DNA from: Deltaproteobacteria bacterium
Lineage (GTDB): Bacteria; UBA10199; JACPAL01
Assembly (NCBI GenBank): GCA_016180845.1
Contig: JACPAK010000001.1
Span: 225,707-289,706 of the forward strand
Reading direction: 5' to 3'
DNA length: 64,000 bases
Shown: piece after piece, positions 3,390 through 59,250 of the stretch
Layout of the letters: every line of letters begins with the position of its first letter
Position numbering within the stretch: the stretch's first letter is position 1
Position numbers and translations under genes: made by a program
Notes under the pieces: model-generated
Told to the model about the DNA's origin: nothing
The model's input: only the letters and a program-made list of their open reading frames with translations
Database searches by the model: none

Positions 3390-3677
3390 TTATGGCGCCC
3401 CATTCGTTCCATGACAAGCGGCACAACCAGAAACCCCTTCTTGAAGGGCATGATCGTGTACCACCTCAATATCCACAAGCCCGCCGGTACGATCGATCAA
3501 GTGGATGTTATCCAGATTATGACAGGTGGTGCAGTCGCTCCGTCCCCAACCGATCTCATGCTCCGATTCTGTAAGAGCAAGCCCTTCCGGTGAATCCAAC
3601 AGGTTTCCGTAATTTTCCCCCTGATTGACGACACTCCCGCAGGAGATGAAGAACAACAAACCGAAGATTATTATCAT
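3390..3677 (-). CDS. Diheme cytochrome c lipoprotein
   Basis: Signal peptide with an LFFISC lipobox-like Cys, then CTTCH and CAACH heme motifs. ATGA overlap with the upstream heptaheme gene. Confidence 0.7.
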   Translation of the reverse strand: MIIIFGLLFFISCGSVVNQGENYGNLLDSPEGLALTESEHEIGWGRSDCTTCHNLDNIHLIDRTGGLVDIEVVHDHALQEGVSGCAACHGTNGAP

Positions 3678-5489: not shown

Positions 5490-8400
5490 GATTTGTCGCC
5501 AATCGATTTCCGGCAAGATCTTGTGCATTCGTTGTGACTGTTGCCCGATAGACCGTCTCCTCACGAAGTGGCCGGGCATTGGTGGCAATCGTAAAATCAA
5601 CCGCCTGGCATGTCGCCGTCCGGCAATGGACGTTTCCACTGACACTTAACCACTCCCATCTCCGGGTTCTACTATTCCAATTCCTTCTTGAAAGGGTGAA
5701 GACGCCGGAAGACTCGACACTCGCCCGAATCATCGCCTCATTAAAATTAACTGTGATGATTGTGGTCGATGTCAAAACATCAGTCGCGCCGTTCGTGGGT
5801 ACCGTCGAATTCACAATCGGCCGAGTCGTGTCTGGGGTCAGGGTCGTAAAGGTCCAGCGATAATCTGTCGCTAGCGGCGTGCCGCCCCAGTCTGTCACCA
5901 CCGTGGTAATCCTTCCTCGATATTGGGTGTTCGGTTGCAGCGGGGTCTCCGGTGAAAAGGTCGCCGTCAGACACCAGTCGGCACTGCAAGCGACACGCCC
6001 TGCCACCCGACTTCCATCCGAAACCTTTTCCACAACAAAACTGTTTTCGACTGGAGGCGCTATTGTGCTGCGCAACATCGGCTCACTGAATGTAATTCTG
6101 ATGGTTGTCGGCGAGAAGGGTGTTCCCAACGCAACTCCCGTCGCCCCATTCGTCGGTATCGTTGAGGAAACGGCCGGTGGACCACTAGCAACCTGGTCAT
6201 TCCCAGGGGGATTGCAGTCAGGGAGTTCCGGTGGGAAGGGACGACTGCTGCTGTGACAGACACCGCCACATGTGCTCTCTGTTCGATAAGAGCGGTTCCC
6301 ATTGGTATGGCAGGAACCGTCGCTCCCACAGCCGCCTCTGGCAACGCTATCAATATTGTTATCGAGTAAGTAGAGCACGTGACCGAAGTTGGCAGCCGTT
6401 CGGGAACCACAGGTCGAACTGACGACCGGTTCCCAATTGTAAGAAGTGGTCCGTGCCGTTGGCGGATCTCCGCTTGTGACGATTTGCTCATAACCGACAT
6501 GGGGATAGTTCTGGTGACACATATAACAATAGGATCGGGAGACGAGTGTCGCACGTGTCTGTGTCTCATTGAAGGCAGTGGGAGAACCGTCATGACATCC
6601 GCCGCAATCCGCCTCACCCCAAGTGGCTGACGTGAAGCGACTTGAATAGGACACACCATGCCCCGATCCCCGCCACCACGTTGATGATGAATGGGGATAA
6701 CTCGGGTGACAGGTGTAACAGGAGATTGTCGAGATCCCCCCTCCGTAATCGTCCCCGTGACAACTTCGACACCCAACCCGGCTGGCATTGAACCTATCTC
6801 CGTGACGGGCGCTACTACTGCCCGTAACCCAATCCTGATCCTCAGAAACATCAGGCGACCGCAGATGCGGGTAGTTCGGATGGCAGGCAGCAGAACCGCA
6901 GGAGGTTGCGCGTCCATCGGGGCCTGCACCGAAATTCAAATGACACCGTGTGCAGCTACTCCTTAAACCCCGAACACCGTCCAAATAGGCGGTCGTATGC
7001 TCCCCTCCCTGATCGGTCTTCCAGTCCGTAACAAGTTGATGCGGATAGTTTTCGTGACACCCTGAACCGGAACAGGATCGGCCGGAATTACCACCGGCAT
7101 AGTTGGTTCCATGACAGAGCGAGCACCTGTTAAACGAATCGGGGAAATCATTATCCTGTTGTTCCAGATACTCCGCCGCATGGGGGCTTGGAAAATTTGC
7201 TGCCCGGCTCCGCTCAACATCCCAACAAGTCGGTTCATCAGCGCCGTCACACTCCTGCTCCGTCCAGGTCTCTGTCCCCACCTCATATTCCGTCCAGCCG
7301 GACCGATGCGGGAAATTGGTATGACAGGAATAGCAATTACGCCCATCAAATTCCCTCTGAAAATCGGTCCCATGACAGCCGGCACAACGCAACTGACGAT
7401 TCGCATCGCTGATCGCGAACGGCCCGTGCTCCGTCGTTTCCCAGTTCGGCAATAATTCATGCGGGTAGAGATGGCACTGCAGGCAGGGACGCGCCGCAGC
7501 GGTCCCCGCTATCTCCCGGTTATGACAGGTCATACAATTGTTAAACCCATCCCTCAAGACAACAGCACCATGTCCTGCGGCCCCACGCCAGTTGTCCTGA
7601 CTGTGGGTCTCCGGGAAGCCACTGTGGCATTCATTACAATTCGCCCCACGTGTCCGCTGAAGGTCCGGGATCAGATTCACCCCGTGACACCGCGCAGTCC
7701 CGCAGGTTGCACGTCCGTTTTCCTGGACAAAGTCGCCATGGAGTTGCGGCTGCCCTTGCTCACGACGCCATCCCTCAGGATGCGGAAAGGGGTTATGGCA
7801 CTCCCCGCAGCGTCGATTCCCTCGTGGAGACGAATCAGAGGTCAGGGAATGACAAGTCCTGCATTCGTTACGCATCAGGACAGGAAGCGCATAGGATCCA
7901 TGTCCTTCAAATTCACGCCATCCGGAGGGATGAGAACCGGCAAATGAGGGATGGCAGGAGAAACAGTTTTGTCCCTTGAGAACCTTTTTGAGATCGGCTC
8001 CATGACAGAGCTGGCATTTTTCTGTCTCCCCCTGATAGGTCACACGAACACGCTCTCCATGCCCTCCTGAAAAAGGGATCCAAGTAGCACTCGCCGGATG
8101 GGGATAATCGGCATGACAGGTGGTGCAATTTTTCCCGGCAACTAGTCTCTCTCCCCGCTCTCCATGACACCCCTGACAGGCGGTGCGACCAAGCTCCAAT
8201 GAGGTGGGACCATGCTGCGTCTGCCACCCTTCCCCATGCGGATAGAGGGTATGACAACGATTGCAGGCGATCTGCGAAAGTCCTCCATTCAGATCAGCTC
8301 CATGGCATTGTGTCGTACATCCTTCCCTCCCATTATCCAGAACATAAGGGGCATGCTTGGTCTTTTCTCCCCAACCGACTTCATGGGGATAGATCGCATG

Positions 8401-19900: not shown

Positions 19901-20426
19901 TTATGTCTATGTCGACGCCAACCCTGCAGACCGACCCTACATTGGTTGGAAGCCGGACGACCCCTTTTATAAGGTGGCGCGTCTCATGCTCCGCGCGAAG
20001 TACAATCCGGCCTATCCCTATCACGTGATAATGATCAAACATGGGACATGGATCGCGACGGAAAAGACCGTCAAGGCCCACGAAACCCGTCCTGACGGCC
20101 GGGCGCTTTCGGAGACCGGCTACCAGGCAAATTTCCGGTACGGTTCCCAGCAAAGCATCACGCGCGAATGGGCGATGCCGATGCACCAAACCGACACCCT
20201 CTTTCACAAGGCAAGATTGGGGCAGAGGTTTCTCTTCGGCGGCGAGGCGGACAACCACATGATCAATACCGTCCCGAAGGAAACGCTGGTTCGCGTGGTC
20301 AAGGCGGAGGATGGCGGGCTCGGAGGCAAGGGAAAGTGGGAGGGTGCGACGACGGGCCACACGCCCGGAGATGAAAACAGAGAGATGCAGATCTATCTCG
20401 CAGGAAGGTTTATCAAAAATGGCTGA
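16977..20426 (+). CDS. nxrA: TAT-exported molybdopterin oxidoreductase alpha subunit, type II DMSO reductase family, nitrite oxidoreductase/nitrate reductase-like (NxrA/NarG family, periplasmic type)
   Basis: Twin-arginine signal (SRREFLKKAGLGAGA). FTFVCSPNDTHACRVRAF Fe-S/His motif of NarG-like enzymes. About 1150 aa, matching periplasmic NxrA. Confidence 0.75.
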   Translation: MSKIHPLSRREFLKKAGLGAGAYALLSSSTYAYLKPIVGVDNPLEFYPSRDWEKVYRDQYRYDSSFTFVCSPNDTHACRVRAFVRNGILVRTEQNYDVQRYSDLYGNKASPNWNPRMCPKGYTLAQRMYGPNRLKDPVVRKGWRAWVKDGCPYLTPELKKKYKFDSRGSDELQFIAWDEAYDLAARAMIAIATMYNGDEGAKRLAEEGYVPEMIQRMEGSGMRTLKYRGGMGLLGVIGKFGMYRFSNMMALVDSHLRGVEEKEAKGGRSWDNYTEHGDQAPGYPFVHGLQTSDCDFNDLRFTKLHIQCGKNLVENKMPESHWFIESIERGAKVVTITPEYSPPATKSDYWIPVRPASDAAIFLGIAKILIDRKWYDAEFVKKFTDLPLLVRTDNLKRLHAAEVFPGYQPGLSPEGASLKEQGLTKEQYGQLGDFVVRDTVSGDFKAVTRDDVGNHLKEKGIDPVLEWRGMVKMADGTTVETTTLWEAYKIHLKDYDLDTVAEVTQAPKGLIEQLAKDLATIKPAAIHMGEGINHWFHATEVNRATLLPLMLTGNIGQQGAGSFTWAGNYKSANFQAAPGVGAGLGVWVAEDPFHPTLDSKTPGKDVQVKNYALEEGASYWAHGDHPLIVETPKFGRKMFTGKTHMPSPTKGMWFTNVNHINNSKWAYQVIKNVLPTCNMIAVTDVELNGTIEYADIAFPASWWAEIENYEVTSSCSNPFLQIWKGSLKPPLNTKDDVQILAGVAKRLGEILGDRRFEDYWKFVHQKKTEVYIQRLLDASMTLHGYRFDDIITGKYGEPGAALMLYRTYPRIPFWEQVHEDKPFFTDTGRLNSYCDIPEAIEYGENFIVHREGPEATPYLPNAILSTNPLVRPEDYGIPPDDMEAEARHVRNIKMSWQQLKGTENPLWRQGFQFYCVTPKTRHTVHSQWSNVTWNRVWASNFADQLREDKRQPDAADHQVHINPQAAKDLGINDGDYVYVDANPADRPYIGWKPDDPFYKVARLMLRAKYNPAYPYHVIMIKHGTWIATEKTVKAHETRPDGRALSETGYQANFRYGSQQSITREWAMPMHQTDTLFHKARLGQRFLFGGEADNHMINTVPKETLVRVVKAEDGGLGGKGKWEGATTGHTPGDENREMQIYLAGRFIKNG

Positions 20427-20772
20427 AGAGGAAAACAAAGTGTCGGCGAGTGCAGGATCTGGCTTTGCCAGTCCGGAGCGAGAGGGGACCGGGGGGAAGG
20501 GGCCCTCTTCCGCTTGCGGAAGGGGCAGCGTTCCCCCCGATCCAGAAGACCCGTTTGAGATGGTCCAGCAGTTTATCGACGTGCCGGCGGATGACCGGTT
20601 CTACGATCAGATGGCCCGGACGTTCATCGAGGAATATTTAATGATGGGATGGAGTGACGAAGAAATCTTCAGTCTCTTTCAGGAACCTTTTTACAGAGGC
20701 ACGCATGATATTTTGCAAAAGAAGGGTGAGGCCTTCGTGAAGAGCCTGATCCATGAGGTGAGACATGGCTAA
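20419..20772 (+). CDS. Small hypothetical protein encoded between the alpha and beta subunits; low-complexity N-terminus
   Basis: The ATG overlaps the alpha stop codon. G/S/P-rich N-terminus, then a conserved-looking acidic helical segment. The ORF ends where the beta gene starts. Confidence 0.4.
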   Translation: MAEEENKVSASAGSGFASPEREGTGGKGPSSACGRGSVPPDPEDPFEMVQQFIDVPADDRFYDQMARTFIEEYLMMGWSDEEIFSLFQEPFYRGTHDILQKKGEAFVKSLIHEVRHG

Positions 20773-24501: not shown

Positions 24502-24628
24502 ACTCTAGAATCCGATCCCTCCGACCTAAACCCCTCGAAGGGCATGGTCGCAGGGACGGGGTAGCGCGGGAAACGGCGCTGCCTCCCGATTCCCGCTTGC
24601 TGCGGGATGAATTGGAAAGGAGCCCGGT

Positions 24629-35141: not shown

Positions 35142-36530
35142 ATGTCATGGAACCTCATCGAAGAAGCCAAAAAAATCATCGGGATCCGATCCTTGACCAA
35201 TGAGGGAACTCGAGCATTGGCCGAGCACCTTGTCCCCCTTTGCCGACAGGCAGGCCTCCAGATAACCCTTCGGCCCCCTTCCAAACCAACCGGTTTTGAT
35301 GAGCTGAATCTGATCGCACATACAGTACCGGACGGATCGGAAGATCTCTGTCCAAATGGGCTCTTGATGGTCACCCACCTCGATACCGTCCCGGCCGGAG
35401 ACCCTGCCTTATGGACAGAGACGTCAGGGAAACCTTTTCAGGCAACAATCAAAGGGGATAAAATCTATGGCCTCGGAAGTGCCGATACGAAGCTTGATTT
35501 TCTCTGCAAGCTAAAGGCGATCGAAGAGGTCGGCGTCAAAAACATCAAGATCCCCCTCTGCCTCGTCGGTTCCTACGGGGAAGAACGGGCGCTCGCCGGG
35601 ATTAAAGAACTGCGTCTTTCGGGGAGGGTCAAACCCCGTTTTGCATTAATCGGGGAGCCATCTGAATTAAAGCCGGTGCTGAAGCATAAGGGGATTTTGT
35701 ATATGCAAGCTTGTTTTGATTTGAAGGGCGGGTGGCTCGGGTCGGGCGCCCGCCCGCGCGCAACGGGTGAGCACGGGTGGGCGGAACCCGAGACAGGACC
35801 CGCCCTTGTGAAAACCAACATTTTTCATGGCCGCGCTGCGCATGGCTCGACCCCCCACCTCGGTGAAAACGCGATCTTTAAGGCGTTCGAGTGGCTCTTC
35901 GAGGAACAGAAAAAAAATCCGCTCATTCAATTGGCCGAAATCAACGGCGGGACGGTACATAATATTGTCCCTGAAACCTGTATGCTGAAAACTACTAGCG
36001 GAGAAAAACCATGCCCACGGATCGAATTCCTGAAGACCTTTTGGGGCCTTTATCAGACAGCGCAGGAAAGATTAGGAGAAAACACCGACTCGCTTTTTGA
36101 TCCACCAATCACCACGGGCAACGTCGGCGTCTTAAAGACAAAAGAAGATCGGATAGAGATGGAATTTGATTTTCGGTTAATCCCCGCCACGAATGGGAAT
36201 GAACTGTTCGAGATCTTTCAAAAAATTTCCCATCTTTCGGGTGCCTCACTTGAGGTAATCTCCTCAAATCCGCCGATGGATACTTCGGAGAGGTCGGAAA
36301 TTGTCCGGCATGTCTCTTCTTCATTAAAAGAGATCGGTCTTCCCGTGGAGTTTCATGCGAAGGCGGGGAATACAGAAGGGGCGATCGTGAGTCAGATGGG
36401 GGCTGAGGCGATCGTGATTGGCCCGGGACGTTCTACGGGAAACATCCATAAGCCGAATGAGTCGAATGAAATCTCGCAATTGAAAAAGGCGGTTGAGTTC
36501 TATGGGGTCCTTTTGAGGAGGTTTTGCTAA
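35142..36530 (+). CDS. M20-family metallopeptidase/deacylase (ArgE/DapE/ACY1-like desuccinylase or deacetylase)
   Basis: Metal-binding motifs HLDTVPAGD and GSADTK. Contains an 84-bp in-frame palindromic insertion. Confidence 0.7.
   Translation: MSWNLIEEAKKIIGIRSLTNEGTRALAEHLVPLCRQAGLQITLRPPSKPTGFDELNLIAHTVPDGSEDLCPNGLLMVTHLDTVPAGDPALWTETSGKPFQATIKGDKIYGLGSADTKLDFLCKLKAIEEVGVKNIKIPLCLVGSYGEERALAGIKELRLSGRVKPRFALIGEPSELKPVLKHKGILYMQACFDLKGGWLGSGARPRATGEHGWAEPETGPALVKTNIFHGRAAHGSTPHLGENAIFKAFEWLFEEQKKNPLIQLAEINGGTVHNIVPETCMLKTTSGEKPCPRIEFLKTFWGLYQTAQERLGENTDSLFDPPITTGNVGVLKTKEDRIEMEFDFRLIPATNGNELFEIFQKISHLSGASLEVISSNPPMDTSERSEIVRHVSSSLKEIGLPVEFHAKAGNTEGAIVSQMGAEAIVIGPGRSTGNIHKPNESNEISQLKKAVEFYGVLLRRFC
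35724..35807. repeat. An 84-bp GC-rich imperfect palindrome inserted in frame into the M20 peptidase gene
   Basis: Terminal inverted repeats aagggcgggt … acccgccctt, with inner arms sharing ctcgggt and ccgccc. It encodes GGWLGSGARPRATGEHGWAEPETGPAL, a sequence not seen in M20 enzymes. Confidence 0.6.
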
Positions 36531-43750: not shown

Positions 43751-45172
43751 ATGACACCGAAAGAGGTTCTGGCTTTTGCCAAGGAAAACAAGGCACGAAT
43801 CGTCGATTTCAAGTTTATCGACCTTCCTGGAGTTTGGCAGCATTTTTCAGTTCCGATCAGTGAATTATCCGAATCCAGTTTTGAAAATGGATTTGGTTTT
43901 GACGGATCCTCCATTCGAGGTTGGCAACCGATTGACGCCTCGGATATGTTAATTATTCCAGATCCAAGCACTGCCGTTATTGATCCTTTCTGTCAGGTCC
44001 CAACCCTCACGATGATCGTTGATGTCGTCGATCCGATCACGAAAGAACCTTATAGTCGTGATCCGCGTTATGTCGCCCGCAAGGCAGAGGCCTACGTAAA
44101 ATCAACCGGAATTGGAGATCGAATATTTTTTGGTCCTGAGGCTGAGTTTTTTGTCTTTGATTCGGTTCGGTTTGATCAGAACTCCCAGAGCGGCTTCTAT
44201 TTCATCGATTCGGTAGAGGGTAAGTGGAATTCCGGTCAGGAAAAGCTTACAAATGGGCAGACCAATCTCGGTTATCAACCCCGCTTCAAGGAAGGCTATT
44301 TCCCGGTTCCCCCGACCGACACCCTTCAAGATATCCGCTCAGAAATGGTCCTGGAGCTGGAGAAGCTGGGAATCGTCGTTGAATGCCAGCACCATGAGGT
44401 CGCTACTGCGGGTCAGTGTGAAATTGACATGCGGTTTGATGCCTTGACCCCCATGGCGGACAAGCTGATGTGGTTCAAGTATGTCCTCAAAAATGTCGCA
44501 CGCCGGCATGGCAAGACAGTCACCTTCATGCCGAAGCCGATTTTCGGCGACAATGGATCCGGAATGCACTGCCATCAATCGATCTGGAAAGGGGATAAAC
44601 CACTGTTTGCCGGTGACAAATACGGTGGTCTCTCAGAGATGGGACTTCATTATCTGGGCGGTATCCTGAAACATGCCAAGGCGTTGGCTGGCTTTACGAA
44701 TCCAACCACAAACTCCTACCGTCGGCTCGTCCCTGGTTTTGAGGCGCCCGTCAATCTGGCCTACTCAGCCCGGAACCGTTCTGCAGCGATTCGTATCCCG
44801 ATCGTCAACTCGCCCAAGGCAAAGCGAATCGAGGTTCGTTTCCCAGATCCATCCTGCAATGGTTATTTGGCCTTTGCCGCACTTTGCATGGCTGGCATCG
44901 ACGGGATCCAGAACCGGATCGACCCCGGAAAGCCACTTGATAAGGACCTTTTTAGCCTCTCTCCTGAAGAGCTCGCTACGGTCCCTCATATGCCGGGTGG
45001 GCTTGAGGAGTCGCTCAAGGCGCTCGAGGAAGATCAATCCTTCCTGCTCAAGGGAGATGTCTTCACGAAGGATCTCATCGAGAAGTGGATCGAGTATAAA
45101 GTAGAGAATGAATTGAATCCTGTAAGACTTCGTCCGGTTCCGTACGAGTTTGCGTTGTACTTCGACATATAG
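43751..45172 (+). CDS. glnA: Glutamine synthetase type I (GlnA)
   Basis: GS-I N-terminal beta-grasp and catalytic domain motifs. 473 aa. Confidence 0.9.
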
Positions 45173-45184
45173 ATTCCCTGTCGT

Positions 45185-45215
45185 AGGGGCATCCCGCGTC
45201 GCGGGATGCCCCAAT
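45185..45215 (+). terminator. Rho-independent terminator after glnA
   Basis: Perfect hairpin GGGGCATCCCGCG/CGCGGGATGCCCC followed by a U-rich stretch. Confidence 0.6.
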
Positions 45216-53411: not shown

Positions 53412-55835
53412 TTGGGAGGTGGAGTGGCTGTCAGAGGCCCAGGAGAGACCTATTATCAAACCCCTACCCTTGCTCGGCCTGAATATTTTGGGACCCCTTT
53501 CACAACCGGCGAACTGCTTCGTTGGCCTCCCTCACAGCTCCTCGACGTACCATTAAGTACGCCTGCGTCGCGTTCGGTCGGCCTGCCTCGCATTTCATCC
53601 GGTTTTGAAAGTTATCCTTTTACGCATCCTCAAGAGACTCCACCAGCATTACCAGTAAAAACCCTCTCCGCAGGAGAAACCCTCGGCATCGCCCTCTCAG
53701 TGGGGGCCCTCGCCACGACATTTGTTGCCCCTCGCTACGGAACCCCACTCATGATCGGGGCGATGGTTTTTCAATTCTTCTGGCCGGCGCAGGCGGAGGC
53801 GCAAGAAAGAGAGAAACAGTGGCGACCTGCCTCCTGTGAAAAAGAGAAAACGATCAAGGAAGAACCTTATTGGGTTCATATTGCGATCGGTTCCGTGGTC
53901 GGAGGGATTGCGATCCGCTTTGGGCTTGTCCCACACACAAAGTTTTTCCAGGGACTTTTCAAGGACCGCCAGAGAGTTAAGACGCTTCTTTTTGGAAAGG
54001 AATGGGAAGTCAAGCCGTATCATAACGGTTTTTGGAATAAAAATCCGGCGATGAGGTTTTTGAACTGGCTGGCCCACCACTGGGGCGCTATTGCCCTCCC
54101 GACTGTTGCGATCGAGATCGCCGCCCGAAAGGCGGTTGGGTATGAACATGAACTCTCACCTCTCGGAGGACTCACGCTGATGCTCTTTTGGAATCGGATC
54201 GGGACACAGCACCTCGGTGCCGATAAGTCAGGAAGCCACATGCTTCTGATTATTGATCGTCTCTACGACGTGATGATCCAGCACCAGTCGAGCCAGCCAT
54301 TGAACGATACAAACTGGTGGTATGTGGCGAATCGTTACGGGGCGATCAGTCTCGTCTGTGGCAGTTACCGTGCCCGCCACCTTCGTGACTGGCTCTCGAA
54401 GAGACGGAGTCAAAAATTCCTCAGGTCGGTCTGGGTTGAATCAGGCGAGGGGCGGTCCCCCACACTCGTTTATGAAGGAGGTCTTCACAAGGTCTCTCTC
54501 TGGGGCCACCAAAGACGGGCCAAGGATTATCAGTGGTGGATGAAGACACTCGATTGGGTATCAGAAACTCGGGTTGGAAAGTTCCTCAGAATCAAAGGAG
54601 CCCCCCATCCAAATCTGGAGCGACGGCTCCGGGACAACCAGGCCCGTCTGATTTCTGAAGATGAGAGTCAGCTTGTCAAAAAACTTCTGGCTTCGAGCAA
54701 CCAGAACAACACCGTTTGGGTCGATGAAATGGGTCGTCTTTGTGAGAGAGATACTGGAAGAGTTCTTGGGGATCTCCTTCTCTCGGAACGAAGGGCAAGG
54801 CTCACGAAGCTCATGGGTGGACCCGATTTCGCCTCTCTAAAAGCCTTAGGAAGTGATCTTTCCCCCAAACAGAGGGACATGCTCACAACAATGATGGGCG
54901 GGACTGAATTCTCATCATTATTTACAGAAGGGGTCGGGACAGGGGTTGTCAGGCTTGGTGCGCAAAGATTCCGTCAAGTGAAGATTGGCAGTCAATTCGG
55001 CGGAGGGGGATTCATGCTCTACTGGTTCTTGCAGGAGGTGGCGACAGCACCGGTCGTCATCGGTGCCGCCTGGCTGCTCTGCGGAGAGGATTTGTGGCAG
55101 AATGCGCAATTTTCAATCATCAGGGCCCCTCTGACGATTCCCAGACTCTTCCTCCGTTACCGGTTGGGAGTTGACACCGCACCCGCGATGATTTTTGACC
55201 GTGTCTGGAAATATGCGACAGAACCGTACATCTCGAAGATGTTTCCACTCCTCGCGAGTCAGGGACTTTTCCGAAAGAAATATCACGCTGAGGCGATCTG
55301 TGCCGATTCGCTTGATCAGTTTGCCAATTACCATATCGGCCCCCATGTCGTACATGGCGGTCTTGGGAGTTACAACCGTCATGTCGCTAATCTCGACCAT
55401 CTGGCGGAGACGGTCGCCCCTCTCTTGAAACGGGTCGATTTCTCCGGTCCTTCCCCCTACTCGCCTGTTGGCATCTCGTATCAATTGCTCGCAAAATATT
55501 ATGTGGGCGAACAGGACGGCGATTACACAGGATTAAGCCTGGAGGAGGTGGGCGGGGTCGAACATCATTTGGGAGAACTCATTGAAGAGGCGAAACGACG
55601 ACTTCGAGGTGAGGTGCGCAGGGAGTTATTGACGTACCAAGATAGCACCGTCATCGAGCTCGCGATGGCCTTGTCTGTCGCCGCCTATTATGCCAATTAC
55701 CAGGACCACAAGAGGTTTGAGAGGCTCGTACAGGAACATCAGGACTGGTTCCGGCAGTTTGAGTCGGTTGGAAAGGATCTGGACACGCTTGAAGACTATG
55801 TCGATTCTATCTCTTCCACTCAAGCTTCGCTTTAA
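53412..55835 (+). CDS. Hypothetical protein (about 700-800 aa), unknown family; start uncertain
   Basis: Long ORF with no identifiable domain. Possible true start at the ATG near 53751. Confidence 0.4.
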   Translation: MGGGVAVRGPGETYYQTPTLARPEYFGTPFTTGELLRWPPSQLLDVPLSTPASRSVGLPRISSGFESYPFTHPQETPPALPVKTLSAGETLGIALSVGALATTFVAPRYGTPLMIGAMVFQFFWPAQAEAQEREKQWRPASCEKEKTIKEEPYWVHIAIGSVVGGIAIRFGLVPHTKFFQGLFKDRQRVKTLLFGKEWEVKPYHNGFWNKNPAMRFLNWLAHHWGAIALPTVAIEIAARKAVGYEHELSPLGGLTLMLFWNRIGTQHLGADKSGSHMLLIIDRLYDVMIQHQSSQPLNDTNWWYVANRYGAISLVCGSYRARHLRDWLSKRRSQKFLRSVWVESGEGRSPTLVYEGGLHKVSLWGHQRRAKDYQWWMKTLDWVSETRVGKFLRIKGAPHPNLERRLRDNQARLISEDESQLVKKLLASSNQNNTVWVDEMGRLCERDTGRVLGDLLLSERRARLTKLMGGPDFASLKALGSDLSPKQRDMLTTMMGGTEFSSLFTEGVGTGVVRLGAQRFRQVKIGSQFGGGGFMLYWFLQEVATAPVVIGAAWLLCGEDLWQNAQFSIIRAPLTIPRLFLRYRLGVDTAPAMIFDRVWKYATEPYISKMFPLLASQGLFRKKYHAEAICADSLDQFANYHIGPHVVHGGLGSYNRHVANLDHLAETVAPLLKRVDFSGPSPYSPVGISYQLLAKYYVGEQDGDYTGLSLEEVGGVEHHLGELIEEAKRRLRGEVRRELLTYQDSTVIELAMALSVAAYYANYQDHKRFERLVQEHQDWFRQFESVGKDLDTLEDYVDSISSTQASL

Positions 55836-56838
55836 CAATTTCACCTCCCCACAAAGAACCCCTTGGGGAGGGACCCGAATCGCCGATCTCAAAAATCATC
55901 TAGGAGTCGCCGAGGGAACCATCATCGGCGAGTCGTGGGAGATCTCTGGACACCCAGAACTTCCAAGCCATGTTGGCATGACTTCATTGAACGAGCTGAT
56001 ACGACAAGATCCGATCTCCTTATTAGGGCAAAGGATTGTTGATCGCTTCGGCCCCGAACTTCCGTTTTTGGTCAAACTGCTGGACACCCGAGATTGGCTC
56101 TCGGTCCAGGTCCACCCAAAGGCCGATTATCCCGGTCTGAAACCTGGCGAGCATTCCAAAAATGAGGCGTGGGTTATTCTCGAAACTTCACAAAATCCCC
56201 CCAATCCCCCTTTGTCAAAGGGGGGCAAAGGGGGATTTTCCCCATCGGGTATCTATTTTGGCTTTAAAGAAGGCGTTACTCGAAAAGATGCCCAATCGGC
56301 ATTAGAGGATGGGAGCGACCTGACCCGATTTTTGAATTTTGTTCCCGTTCAGCCAGGCGATGTCTACTTCGTCCAGGCCGGTGTCCCGCATGCGATCGGA
56401 CCTGGACTTTTTCTCTACGAAATTCAAGAGACCTCTTCAACGACCTACCGCTATTTTGATTTCAATCGGAGAGATAAAAATGGGAACCCGCGTCAGCTCC
56501 ACAAAGAAGACGCCGTCGCCGCAACCGACTGGAATCTTCCTTGGGGAGGGAAACTCCTCTCGCAGTTAAAAATTGAGCCTTATGGAAATCGCCTCTTATC
56601 GACCCCGTATTTTGAGGTCTCAAAGATCGAATTGAAAAGGGGGGCGACTGCCACAGGGGATTCTTCGGGAGGATTTCATGGAATCACCGTTCTCAAGGGT
56701 GAGCTGAGAATTAAAACTACCTCTTCCCAAATCCAGATGAACCAGGGGGAATCAGCGATCATCCCAGCCGCTGTGGGGCGCTACAGCATCATTTCGTCAA
56801 CTCCAGAGTCATTTACCCTCCTGGCCAAGATTCCTTAA
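55798..56838 (+). CDS. manA: Mannose-6-phosphate isomerase, class I (cupin), carrying a 51-bp in-frame palindromic insertion
   Basis: Aligns block-wise with B. subtilis ManA: WGG, ESWEISGHP, LSVQVHP, NEAWVILE, PGDVYFVQAGVPHAIG, YRYFDFNRRDKNGNPRQLH. Confidence 0.8.
   Translation: MSILSLPLKLRFNNFTSPQRTPWGGTRIADLKNHLGVAEGTIIGESWEISGHPELPSHVGMTSLNELIRQDPISLLGQRIVDRFGPELPFLVKLLDTRDWLSVQVHPKADYPGLKPGEHSKNEAWVILETSQNPPNPPLSKGGKGGFSPSGIYFGFKEGVTRKDAQSALEDGSDLTRFLNFVPVQPGDVYFVQAGVPHAIGPGLFLYEIQETSSTTYRYFDFNRRDKNGNPRQLHKEDAVAATDWNLPWGGKLLSQLKIEPYGNRLLSTPYFEVSKIELKRGATATGDSSGGFHGITVLKGELRIKTTSSQIQMNQGESAIIPAAVGRYSIISSTPESFTLLAKIP
56191..56240. repeat. A 50-bp nested hairpin (palindrome) inserted in frame into manA
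   Basis: aaaatccccc…ccccctttg-t-caaaggggg…gggggatttt. It encodes NPPNPPLSKGGKGGFSP, which is absent from homologues. Confidence 0.6.
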
Positions 56839-56898
56839 TTTATCTTTGTCTTTTCCCCTATCTGGAGTAAACTACAGCCTTAGTTAGGAGCTTCTTTA

Positions 56899-57954
56899 AT
56901 GAAGATTTTGCGCCACGACGACAAGCTCCCCGAGACCCCCCTAAAAGAGTTTAACGACGCTTATCATTTCCAACTCACCCGAAAGATCGCCGAAGGGGGG
57001 ATGGGAATCGTCTACGAAGCGCGACTCTTCGGCGCGGAGGGGTTCGAGAAACAGGTCGCGATCAAGACAATCCGGGAAGATATCTCCGACTCAAAAAACT
57101 TTGTTGAGCTTTTTATCGGCGAGGCGAAACTCGCGGCACGTCTGGTTCATCAAAACATTGTCCAAATATACCGGCTCGGAAAGATTGAAAACACCTACTA
57201 CGTCGCGATGGAGTACGTGCGGGGAATCGACCTCAGGGACTTCATTATCAAACACTATGAAAAAGGAAAAAAGATCCCGATAGAGGTAGCGACCTTCATC
57301 GCAAGCCGTGTCTGCCGTGGACTTGAATATGCGCATTCCAGAACCGATGATAAGGGGCGTCCTCTGCAGGTCGTTCACTGCGATATCAGTCCAAAAAATC
57401 TGATGATCTCGACAGAGGGAGAGGTCAAGATTACCGACTTTGGAATTTCGAAGGCGAAGGGTCTGATCCGCGGGGATCTCGTCGAAGGGCTGGGGAAGGC
57501 AGCTTACGTCTCCCCGGAACAGATCAAGGGGGATGCGATCGATTGCCGGTCGGATCTTTTTTCATTGGGAACCGTCCTCTTCGAGCTCCTCTCGGGAGAG
57601 CGGGCCTTCCAGGGACGGAATCGCGAAGCGATTCTGGACAAGGTCGTCAATCAACCGATTTTATCGGTCAGGACATTGAATGAAGAGGTCCCCAAAGAGC
57701 TCGAGGCGATCGTCCTCAAGGCACTGAAGATCGATCGAAACCAGCGTTATCAGGAAGCAGCCGACATGGGGTATGATCTGGAATATCACCTATACCACAA
57801 GGGGTATGGACCAACGAACCAAACCTTGAGGAATTACCTCCAGCAGCTCTCTCCGGAACTCTACGCCTCAGACTTCAAGCCCAAGCAGGCGGAGAAACCG
57901 CTCCCTGGAGATCTTTCAATATCGCTCCACTCTCCTGCGTCGCGTTATTCTTAA
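56899..57954 (+). CDS. Hanks-type Ser/Thr protein kinase
   Basis: GxGxxG-like EGGMGIVYEA. VAIK. Divergent catalytic loop HCDISPKN. DFG. Confidence 0.7.
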   Translation: MKILRHDDKLPETPLKEFNDAYHFQLTRKIAEGGMGIVYEARLFGAEGFEKQVAIKTIREDISDSKNFVELFIGEAKLAARLVHQNIVQIYRLGKIENTYYVAMEYVRGIDLRDFIIKHYEKGKKIPIEVATFIASRVCRGLEYAHSRTDDKGRPLQVVHCDISPKNLMISTEGEVKITDFGISKAKGLIRGDLVEGLGKAAYVSPEQIKGDAIDCRSDLFSLGTVLFELLSGERAFQGRNREAILDKVVNQPILSVRTLNEEVPKELEAIVLKALKIDRNQRYQEAADMGYDLEYHLYHKGYGPTNQTLRNYLQQLSPELYASDFKPKQAEKPLPGDLSISLHSPASRYS

Positions 57955-58169
57955 CCCGCTTGGCACTTCGGGCAGACTTTGAAAAAGCTAACCAGCAACA
58001 TCACCCCTGAGAGTCCCACAATTCCATAGACAACCCGAGAGACGGTTGACATCTCGCCGAAGATCATGGCGATCAAGTCAACATCGAAGAGTCCGACCAA
58101 GCCCCAATTTAAGGCCCCGATGGCAGCGATCGCCCCGACGATTTTACAGACCTTGCAGAGTTTTTTCAT
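57951..58169 (-). CDS. DUF378-family small membrane protein
   Basis: IGALNWGLVGLF…VYGIVGLSGV pattern. Confidence 0.55.
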   Translation of the reverse strand: MKKLCKVCKIVGAIAAIGALNWGLVGLFDVDLIAMIFGEMSTVSRVVYGIVGLSGVMLLVSFFKVCPKCQAG

Positions 58170-58269
58170 ACGATGCCCCCCTTTGGATTGAATTTATAGC
58201 GCTATTAAGCCCAAAAGAGAATAAGAATTTTGTCCCTTCCTCTCGAAAAAGTGTTAAAATTCCACTCCT

Positions 58270-59250
58270 ATGTTGACCCCTGTTCATATTCTGATGGTCG
58301 AGGATAACAATGACTTCGTCTATCTCGTAAGAGAGTCTTTTGAAGGAGACAAAGATCAATGGCAGATCGAGGTCGCTCAGAGCCTCTCAGAGGCAACCCA
58401 AAAACTCGAGAAAGAGATGTATGACCTGATTCTCCTCGACCTCTCCCTCCCAGACAGCAAGGGGTTTGATACCTTTTCAGGCATCAAAAAAACGGCACCG
58501 AAAACAGCGATTGTTGTCTTGACCGGTCTTAATGACGAAAACATCGCGCTTCAGACATTGAAAGAAGGGGCACAAGACTACATTATCAAGGGGAACCTCA
58601 ATAACCAGGCCCTGAAAAGGACAGCCCTATTCGCCATTGAACGTCAAAGCATCGTGGAGAAATGGGAAAAGGCATGGGAGGAAAAAAAGACCCTCGCCAT
58701 GCATGACCCCCTGACAGGCCTTCCGAATCGGCTTCTCCTGAAGGATCGACTCCATCAGTCCCTCTCCCTTGCGAAGCGGCAAGGCCAGATTGTTGCCGCC
58801 CTTTTCATCGATCTGGATCGCTTCAAAGAGATCAATGATACGATGGGCCATGAGGTGGGTGATCAGTTTCTGAAAGAAGTTGCCCAAAGGCTTCAAACCT
58901 CGGTCCGACAGGAAGACACGATTGCACGCCTCGGTGGCGACGAGTTTATCGTCCTCCTCTACGGGCCGAAGACACAAACCGATATACAGCATGTGGCAAC
59001 ACGTATTCTTGGTAAAATTGAAGAGCCTTACCGCCTCTATGACAGGAGATACCGACTCACCGCAAGTATCGGTATCGCCTTGTTCCCTGATTCGGCCCAG
59101 GATTCCAAAGAGCTTTTAAGAAATGCCGATTTTGCAATGTATCTGGCCAAAAACGAGGGGGGTAATCGCTACACCTTCTTCTCCGAGTCAGAGACTGATT
59201 TTTCTTTGAGCCACCCTCATCTAAAACTCCTGCAAAAAACACACGTCTAG
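58270..59250 (+). CDS. Response regulator receiver fused to a GGDEF diguanylate cyclase
   Basis: REC domain (DLILLDLSLPD phospho-acceptor region) and a GGDEF motif (RLGGDEFIVLL). Confidence 0.8.
   Translation: MLTPVHILMVEDNNDFVYLVRESFEGDKDQWQIEVAQSLSEATQKLEKEMYDLILLDLSLPDSKGFDTFSGIKKTAPKTAIVVLTGLNDENIALQTLKEGAQDYIIKGNLNNQALKRTALFAIERQSIVEKWEKAWEEKKTLAMHDPLTGLPNRLLLKDRLHQSLSLAKRQGQIVAALFIDLDRFKEINDTMGHEVGDQFLKEVAQRLQTSVRQEDTIARLGGDEFIVLLYGPKTQTDIQHVATRILGKIEEPYRLYDRRYRLTASIGIALFPDSAQDSKELLRNADFAMYLAKNEGGNRYTFFSESETDFSLSHPHLKLLQKTHV

Follow-up and report, generated by a model that had tools for sequence, protein, structure and literature searches.

Insertion of 16 codons in manA

The window analyzed here (the whole stretch of 64,000 nucleotides, from a metagenome-assembled genome (MAG) labeled Deltaproteobacteria) contains a manA gene at positions 55798..56838 of the plus strand, which carries a 48-nt nested-hairpin element in frame at 56192..56239. 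The element is a copy of a dispersed repeat family found in many phyla, a relationship that had not been seen in an earlier reading of this DNA made from the sequence alone (below, the sequence-only reading).

Assignment of the gene to manA, coding for a class I mannose-6-phosphate isomerase of 346 aa, was confirmed. The plausible start is the ATG at 55798 and the protein begins with MSILSLPLKLRFNNFTSPQRTPWGG. Two Pfam families matched above threshold, PF20511 (PMI_typeI_cat) and PF21621 (MPI_cupin_dom). The best PDB match was 1qwr from B. subtilis (E = 2e-26), with 1zx5 as a further match; Foldseek fitted the ManA model to 1qwr with a TM-score of 0.76-0.83 and also matched the fold of 3h1m. 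A 100% identical protein, named class I mannose-6-phosphate isomerase, is present in an NCBI MAG labeled Deltaproteobacteria bacterium, and the next homologue among 5.8 billion proteins is 48% identical and has no insert. Residues Q104, H106, K121, E123 and H198 are invariant among 18 homologues. We take Q104, H106, E123 and H198 to be the metal-binding or catalytic positions known from the Salmonella enzyme (Gln97, His99, Glu134 and His255) and from the Candida enzyme, E123 presumably being the counterpart of the Salmonella zinc ligand Glu134. Mutant entries of the Salmonella enzyme were among the PDB and Foldseek matches.

Upstream of manA lies an open reading frame (ORF) of 807 aa (53412-55835) with no Pfam match, the last 38 nt of which overlap the start of manA.

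At the insert the protein reads Q132-N133-PPNPPLSKGGKGGFSP-S150-G151, between KNEAWVILE and IYFGF, in the frame and with the peptide that the sequence-only reading had given. The alignment to class I isomerases that it had proposed showed a clean gap of 16 columns opposite PPNPPLSKGGKGGFSP in 17 of 17 homologues, and both PDB relatives also lack the insert. The short loop that had been claimed for B. subtilis ManA agrees with the lack of the insert in 1qwr. The spacing between the motifs KxE[AS]W and [IL]Y[LF]G was exactly 10 residues in 111 of the 112 homologues in which both motifs could be located, and 26 residues in this ManA. The element thus amounts to a net insertion of 16 codons, N133-S148 in the reading register; GGFSPSGIYFGFK is among the predicted tryptic peptides that span it.

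Structure prediction, another of the checks that had been proposed, was performed with AlphaFold2 on the alignment. The mean predicted local distance difference test score (pLDDT) was 93.1 and the sole weak stretch comprised residues ~131-150, with values below 50 at 141-145, between the beta-strands 123-130 and 151-156. The model places the insert in a predicted surface beta-turn at the far end of the strand that bears the putative ligand Glu123.

Precise removal of 56192-56239 would leave ...VILETSPPSG-IYFGF, that is, a 10-residue turn with a proline at the consensus (xEPGAG) position. This excision fits better than other cuts and would imply that no target sequence was duplicated at the putative junctions. 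Judged from the sequence comparisons, the hairpin appears to be a lineage-specific in-frame insertion of 16 codons, and ManA presumably remains active with it.

Architecture and fold of the manA hairpin

The element is composed, in this order, of a left outer arm AAAATCCCCC (56192..56201), a left linker CAAT (56202..56205) which is variable among copies, the core hairpin CCCCCTTTG-T-CAAAGGGGG (56206..56224; full core CCCCCTTTGTCAAAGGGGG), a right linker GCAAA (56225..56229) and a right outer arm GGGGGATTTT (56230..56239), which pairs with the left arm. Both linkers are unpaired. Folded as DNA, the element forms an outer stem of 10 bp, an internal loop of 4x5 nt and an inner stem of 8 bp with a 3-nt loop, or of 9 bp if a G-C pair closes a 1-nt loop. 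The sequence-only reading had described a perfect two-stem hairpin of 50 nt (56191-56240): the hairpin is present and each of its stems is perfect, but it spans 48 nt, and with the internal loop between the stems the whole is not one perfect hairpin. Its arms contain 9-nt tandem duplications (AATCCCCCY twice and CAAAGGGGG twice).

The DNA fold had an energy of -18.2 kcal/mol, with a z of -4.0; of 200 dinucleotide shuffles, none was equally stable. As RNA, the element folded with -29.9 kcal/mol. In a sliding scan of 60-nt folds it ranked fifth in the window, in which five loci reached -18 kcal/mol or lower, against 0-1 in six dinucleotide shuffles of the whole window. No intrinsic terminator was called at the hairpin in a scan of 54000-59000, the stem being followed by CCCCATCG and not by a T-run. 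The search of the hairpin region against Rfam at E <= 10 returned chance hairpin matches only.

A dispersed repeat family

At least 120 stretches of reference genomes contain the exact 19-nt core CCCCCTTTGNCAAAGGGGG, against about 8.7 expected by chance (a self-complementary pattern with 18 fixed bases, in 596 Gb). The outer arms lay outside the search pattern, so that the flanks represent unsearched sequence. Canonical outer arms, AAATC5-6 and G5-6ATTT, stood at the same distance in 91 of the 131 genome matches listed: by a strict test 14 had two arms, 77 had one and 40 had none. The one-armed matches correspond to a single asymmetric unit in either orientation. The core was also present in 49 viral stretches, with canonical arms in 45 of 51 viral matches.

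When the right arm alone (CAAAGGGGGGCAAAGGGGGATT) was used for the search, 18 metagenome contigs with unrelated flanks were obtained, 15 of which have a complete two-block left arm. One of these metagenome copies, L175, is identical to the manA element at 45 of 48 positions, and the CAAA linker of the manA copy is shared with the subfamily retrieved by the right arm. The manA copy has the marks of the family, namely the core C5-6 TTTG-N-CAAA G5-6, both arms, and linkers of 4 nt and 5 nt; its ends are AAAAT/ATTTT, where other copies have AAGT or (G)AAAT. A covariance model built on 14 full-length copies (13 from other genomes and the manA copy itself) detected the manA copy on both strands with 63 bits and an E value of about 1e-18, the next best match in the window having 14 bits.

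According to the record titles, the sources include Nitrospirota, Nitrospinota, Methylomirabilota, Desulfobacterota (Geobacter, Syntrophaceae, Desulfarculaceae), Myxococcota, all classes of Proteobacteria, Bacteroidota (Alistipes, Tidjanibacter, Ignavibacteria, Kapaibacterium), Chloroflexota, Omnitrophota, Glassbacteria, Binatia, Dependentiae and Planctomycetota. Several of the sources are isolates, and the finished genome of G. bemidjiensis is among the isolate genomes that carry the family. Copies with unrelated flanks occur across public genomes, viral contigs and metagenomes. No match was obtained in 5,426 complete E. coli genomes, and BLAST against plasmid and cultured-phage collections gave few, weak matches only.

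Some genomes are dense in such hairpins: a Nitrospinota contig has 16 core-like hairpins within 4 kb, and a Nitrospirae contig has 18 within 8 kb. The dense contigs contain composite arrays of the element and of cousin hairpins such as CCCCTCTTT..AAAGAGGGG. One Nitrospirae MAG contains, at three places (L044 7820-8000, L120 5512-5662 and L112 2623-2806), a repeat of ~150 nt that consists of three successive hairpins: CCCCACAG..CTGTGGGG, the element, and the cousin just mentioned. In a Nitrospinota MAG (L089 1-520), a unit of ~500 bp is enclosed by inverted repeats of ~50 nt, which terminate in copies of the element; this unit might represent an invertible segment or a composite repeat of larger size.

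Copies within other genes and in phages

About a quarter of the genome matches listed sit well within long ORFs, and the others are intergenic or located at gene ends. Relative to the flanking genes, copies were co-directional in 11 and 11 cases, convergent in 11 and divergent in 6, and in-gene copies occur in both orientations. This lack of orientation bias argues for an element acting at the DNA level and not for a strand-specific RNA signal.

In-frame copies were found in genes confirmed by Pfam as coding for RecJ (DHH domain), an N6/N4 methylase, an Eco57I-like methylase, a histidine kinase, CobQ (interdomain linker), a solute-binding protein, an SMC-like ATPase, MetRS (linker) and PolB. 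NuoL contains two adjacent in-frame copies, and further ones lie in RsmG/GidB, in a GT4 glycosyltransferase and in PurL, there in the linker directly ahead of the glutaminase domain. The encoded peptides, among them NPPSPPFVKGGMGGF, NPPSPPFDKGGMGGF, NPPIPPLSKGGKGGF and SNPPTPPLSKGGKGGL, compared with NPPNPPLSKGGKGGF in manA, are nearly alike (NPPxPPLSKGGKGGF). Other genes read the element in all three frames, which gives alternative peptides such as PLCQRG and PFVKGG. The blocks of the element are free of stop codons in every frame of both strands, with the exception of a TGA in one frame if the loop base is A; among the in-gene copies, none using the TGA frame and none breaking the reading frame was seen.

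In recJ of a Nitrospirota (L009 6735-6767), four tandem 8-nt units AAGTCAGA precede the element and form with it a composite in-frame insert right after the DHH motif.

At least five Mu-like phages carry the element in the portal gene, at C-terminal positions that are homologous: L134 44-1165 and L162 89-1531 (QIPPNPPLTKGGEGGL / QIPPTPPLTKGGSVAGEI), and also L125, L154 and L160. Either a single permissive site was invaded repeatedly, or the hairpin has been conserved there.

Two further observations concern phages. Between the viral contigs L125 (6973-8234) and L148 (415-1682), a nucleotide homology of 92% ends exactly at the edge of the core, which may mark a recombination breakpoint or a module boundary. 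In the cultured Mu-like Haemophilus phage SuMu, a cousin hairpin AAATCTCCCCC-TAA-CCCCCTCTTTGTCAAAGAGGGGG (L192 2490-2545, equal to 5962-6017 of NC_019455) occupies an unannotated gap directly downstream of gam, before the next gene.

Relation to known repeats

The closest described relative is found in the genome paper of G. bemidjiensis (Aklujkar et al. 2010, PMC2996986), which lists in Table S6 an uncharacterized multicopy sequence 'AAGTCCCCCTTTGCGAAGGGGGATTAGGGGGATTTC' with six intergenic copies, Gbem_R5001-R5006. These share with our element the core C5TTTG..AAG5, a short linker and G5ATTT, and they are multicopy. They have one outer arm and are all intergenic, whereas the manA copy is two-armed and lies within a gene; they represent the asymmetric form, which is the majority type among the genome matches listed (77 of 131). 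Spread across phyla and viruses is not reported in that paper, which describes another repeat family of G. bemidjiensis inserted in genes in all frames without frameshifts.

In-frame insertions into genes by Rickettsia palindromic elements (RPE), BRE, RUP and others have been reviewed (PMC3184786). RPE (Ogata et al. 2000, cited in PMC3184786) resemble our element as selfish palindromes inserted in frame into housekeeping enzymes, in surface segments, with the function kept. However, RPE are 105-146 bp long, unrelated in sequence and found in Rickettsia only, whereas copies of our element have 33-49 nt and blocks of C/G homopolymers and are present in many phyla and in phage contigs. The manA element, with its 48 nt, its C/G-run blocks and its source in a Deltaproteobacteria-labeled MAG, has only the in-frame behavior in common with RPE.

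Repetitive extragenic palindromes (REP) and the REPIN-RAYT systems are similar in being GC-rich imperfect palindromes of 20-40 nt, mostly extragenic, often clustered, present in both orientations and without target duplications. REPs carry a GTAG/CGTC tag, are lineage-specific and are extragenic by definition; our element has no such tag (AAGT or AAAT instead), and no cognate RAYT was found in the window or, apart from one truncated Y1 ORF, in 120 loci with copies. The bacterial miniature inverted-repeat transposable elements (MITEs: Correia, RUP, BRE, Chunjie; PMC3184786) also have terminal inverted repeats and a stable fold, are non-coding, and are in some cases located in genes or fused to them. 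Typically they measure 100-400 bp and have target-site duplications and a recognizable parent insertion sequence. The arms of the 48-nt element are inverted repeats, but no direct repeat flanks it, and no parent element emerged from the 148 ORFs next to copies, among which no transposase family recurs.

Organellar genomes contain mobile hairpin inserts of 27-55 nt within protein-coding genes, such as the 'byps' of Magnusiomyces, the double-hairpin elements and the GC clusters; the RHE of sponges is a further organellar hairpin element. Byps are skipped by the ribosome, so their frame need not hold, whereas the manA insert shows no evidence of take-off and landing codons. Translational bypassing of the byp type was set aside for manA: the insert is in frame and stop-free, so that ordinary translation suffices, and frame-breaking copies were not seen in other genes.

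Literature searches with sequence and peptide strings returned primers and unrelated matches only, searches by concept led to the reviews on RPE, REP and MITEs and to the Geobacter genome papers, and a phylogenomics paper on HUH enzymes contains no repeat matching the element. In the literature covered, to which most papers of subscription journals do not belong, no description was found of the distribution of the family across phyla and viruses or of its in-gene copies. Taken alone, the insert in manA adds one more example to a phenomenon already known; what is of interest is the breadth of the family, which is very widespread and essentially uncharacterized, behaves like RPE at a third of their length, and extends beyond a single lineage.

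Origin of the insert

We consider it probable that the manA hairpin is a copy of a selfish palindromic repeat of the RPE kind, which a permissive loop of the enzyme tolerates. The family would then consist of non-autonomous repeats of only about 33-49 nt that form hairpins, with the architecture (G)AAATC5-6 / 3-5 nt linker / C5-6 TTTG-N-CAAA G5-6 / 3-5 nt linker / G5-6ATTT(C) and an asymmetric form with a single outer arm, and one copy would have integrated into manA. The C-runs, followed by the G-runs, encode a Pro-rich and then Gly-rich flexible peptide. Tolerance by manA would be explained because 48 nt correspond to 16 codons, the frame used is stop-free, the peptide is flexible and the site is a surface beta-turn. 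In its distribution at the DNA level the element resembles selfish or neutral DNA, with no strand preference, a mostly intergenic location and, within genes, a restriction to permissive sites.

The palindromic form, together with the missing target duplication, favors a route dependent on single strands or hairpins over cut-and-paste transposition by a DDE enzyme. Candidate routes are an HUH/Y1-type enzyme or template switching during replication, and copies would accordingly spread by a hairpin- or single-strand-dependent process.

A wider proposal, which we advance tentatively, is that stop-free nested hairpins of 33-49 nt, pan-bacterial and phage-borne, spread horizontally and repeatedly colonize permissive loops and linkers of housekeeping enzymes, their core being kept either through selection or because homologous sites are invaded again and again. 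The proteins colonized in this manner might include ManA, RecJ, PurL, RsmG, MetRS, CobQ, NuoL and the phage portal proteins.

Origin by mobility has to be weighed against local events in manA itself, that is, template switching, quasipalindrome correction and small tandem duplications with no imported sequence. The 9-nt tandem duplications in the arms and the absence of a target duplication would agree with this, and so would the lack of sequence relationship to the two other in-ORF palindromes of the window and the loop of an M20 peptidase (see below) that holds different hairpins in different relatives. Near-identical full-length copies (45 of 48 positions) with equal linkers are, however, present in unrelated contigs with unrelated flanks, and the whole architecture recurs across phyla and viruses, which makes local events very unlikely; as one particular sequence of 48 nt cannot have originated anew on many separate occasions, they are effectively excluded. 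Selection of the 16-residue Pro/Gly loop for a new property of the enzyme (interaction, localization or regulation), with the palindrome as an incidental feature, could be argued from the recurrence of one peptide in several enzymes and from the position of the insert, 10 residues beyond the putative metal ligand Glu123. It is marginally less likely again, given that other genes read the element in all three frames and obtain differing peptides, that the loop is predicted to be disordered and that most copies are intergenic. The idea of an assembly or sequencing artefact is prompted by the source, a MAG, and by the ability of chimeric reads to create palindromes. Three contigs from separate runs (SRR12113431, SRR12113424 and SRR12113419) agree with the window at every base over 2-8 kb, also across the hairpin, and this identity among three independent assemblies shows that the hairpin is not an assembly artefact; the length of the insert also preserves the reading frame, and the family exists in isolate genomes including the finished one of G. 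bemidjiensis. The probability of an artefact is practically negligible.

The least improbable of the rival explanations, although still an unlikely one, is that the hairpin is a selected functional structure serving attenuation or termination inside genes, mRNA processing or stabilization, translational pausing at PP motifs, or as a protein-binding or recombination site. The very stable fold and perfect stems speak for it, as does the resemblance of the outer arms (A-tract/GC stem/T-tract) to a bidirectional terminator. So do three observations on phages: the equal core at the homologous site of two portals of 29% identity, the homology of two phage contigs that ends exactly at the element, and the related hairpin directly downstream of gam in SuMu. 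Against it stand the lack of orientation bias with respect to transcription, the occurrence of copies in every sort of context, the missing T-run and terminator call at manA and the absence of an Rfam match; moreover, none of 111 ManA homologues needs a hairpin. In some contexts the hairpin may have a functional role.

Several results weigh against a selfish, mobile repeat as well. Mismatch patterns, regular expressions and the covariance model with filters off all failed to find a further copy in the 64-kb window, so that the single copy lends no support to multicopy status within the source genome. No direct target-site duplication flanks the manA copy or the other copies inspected. The databases hold no closely related genome with an empty site; since the best other ManA is 48% identical, the event of insertion, its date and the precise position of its junctions are matters of inference. 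A tblastn search of the window with the Y1_Tnp protein of contig L124 found no homologue, and the same search in 120 loci found one truncated ORF, in L063, ~450 nt from a copy. Among 148 ORFs adjoining copies, Pfam revealed no recurrent transposase family; the only recurrent families were structural genes of Mu-like phages, which recur because copies lie inside the portal genes. The two portal proteins share only 29% identity while their 19-nt cores are exactly equal, which may reflect a selected hairpin and not mobility. More generally, the identity across phyla could come partly from selection on a functional hairpin, and its uniformity is overstated by the exact-match patterns with which the matches were gathered.

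Implications

In-frame invasion of genes by palindromic repeats has hitherto been regarded as a peculiarity of Rickettsia and a handful of further lineages, and the manA case suggests that it is more general. A near-identical short element is present in Nitrospirota, Desulfobacterota, Proteobacteria, Bacteroidota, Chloroflexota, candidate phyla and Mu-like phages, also inside essential enzymes, and points to a mobilization machinery of unusually broad host range. If mobile, it would be a general source of new Pro/Gly-rich protein loops. It is also a likely source of spurious 'hypothetical proteins' in the annotation of MAGs, and its C6/G6 runs may act as hypermutable tracts inside genes. A practical use is that the element marks sites in enzymes that accept insertions of 16 residues.

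Other palindromes in the window

The sequence-only reading had counted the manA hairpin as the third palindrome within a gene of the window, and two others were indeed located inside ORFs, both unrelated in sequence to the manA hairpin. The strongest hairpin of the window (20486-20543, -24.1 kcal/mol) is GGACCGGGGGGAAGGGGCCCTCTTCCGC-TT-GCGGAAGGGGCAGCGTTCCCCCCGATCC. An ORF of 117 aa (20419-20772) without Pfam match holds it in frame, in its N-terminal low-complexity part, and has as neighbors the genes for a molybdopterin oxidoreductase and a 4Fe-4S protein.

The other (35736-35795), a GC-rich nested hairpin, keeps the frame of an M20 peptidase gene (35142-36530), where it falls into a hypervariable loop. 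A relative of this peptidase with 73% identity, on contig L124, is 15 aa shorter and has another palindrome in the same loop (3590-3625), GCCCTCTCCC-ACAAG-GGGAGAGGG, which encodes the peptide PLPQGER; similar peptides are found in several other homologues. Hairpin elements thus seem to have landed in this loop more than once. Directly upstream of the M20 peptidase gene, contig L124 carries a gene for a 293-aa Y1_Tnp protein (IS200/RAYT-like; 2083-2964), which is absent at the syntenic site of the window.

Strong intergenic hairpins were also observed at gene ends, at 45156-45215 and 24551-24610, for example GGGGCATCCCGCGTCGCGGGATGCCCC after the ORF ending at 45172. These look like ordinary terminators.

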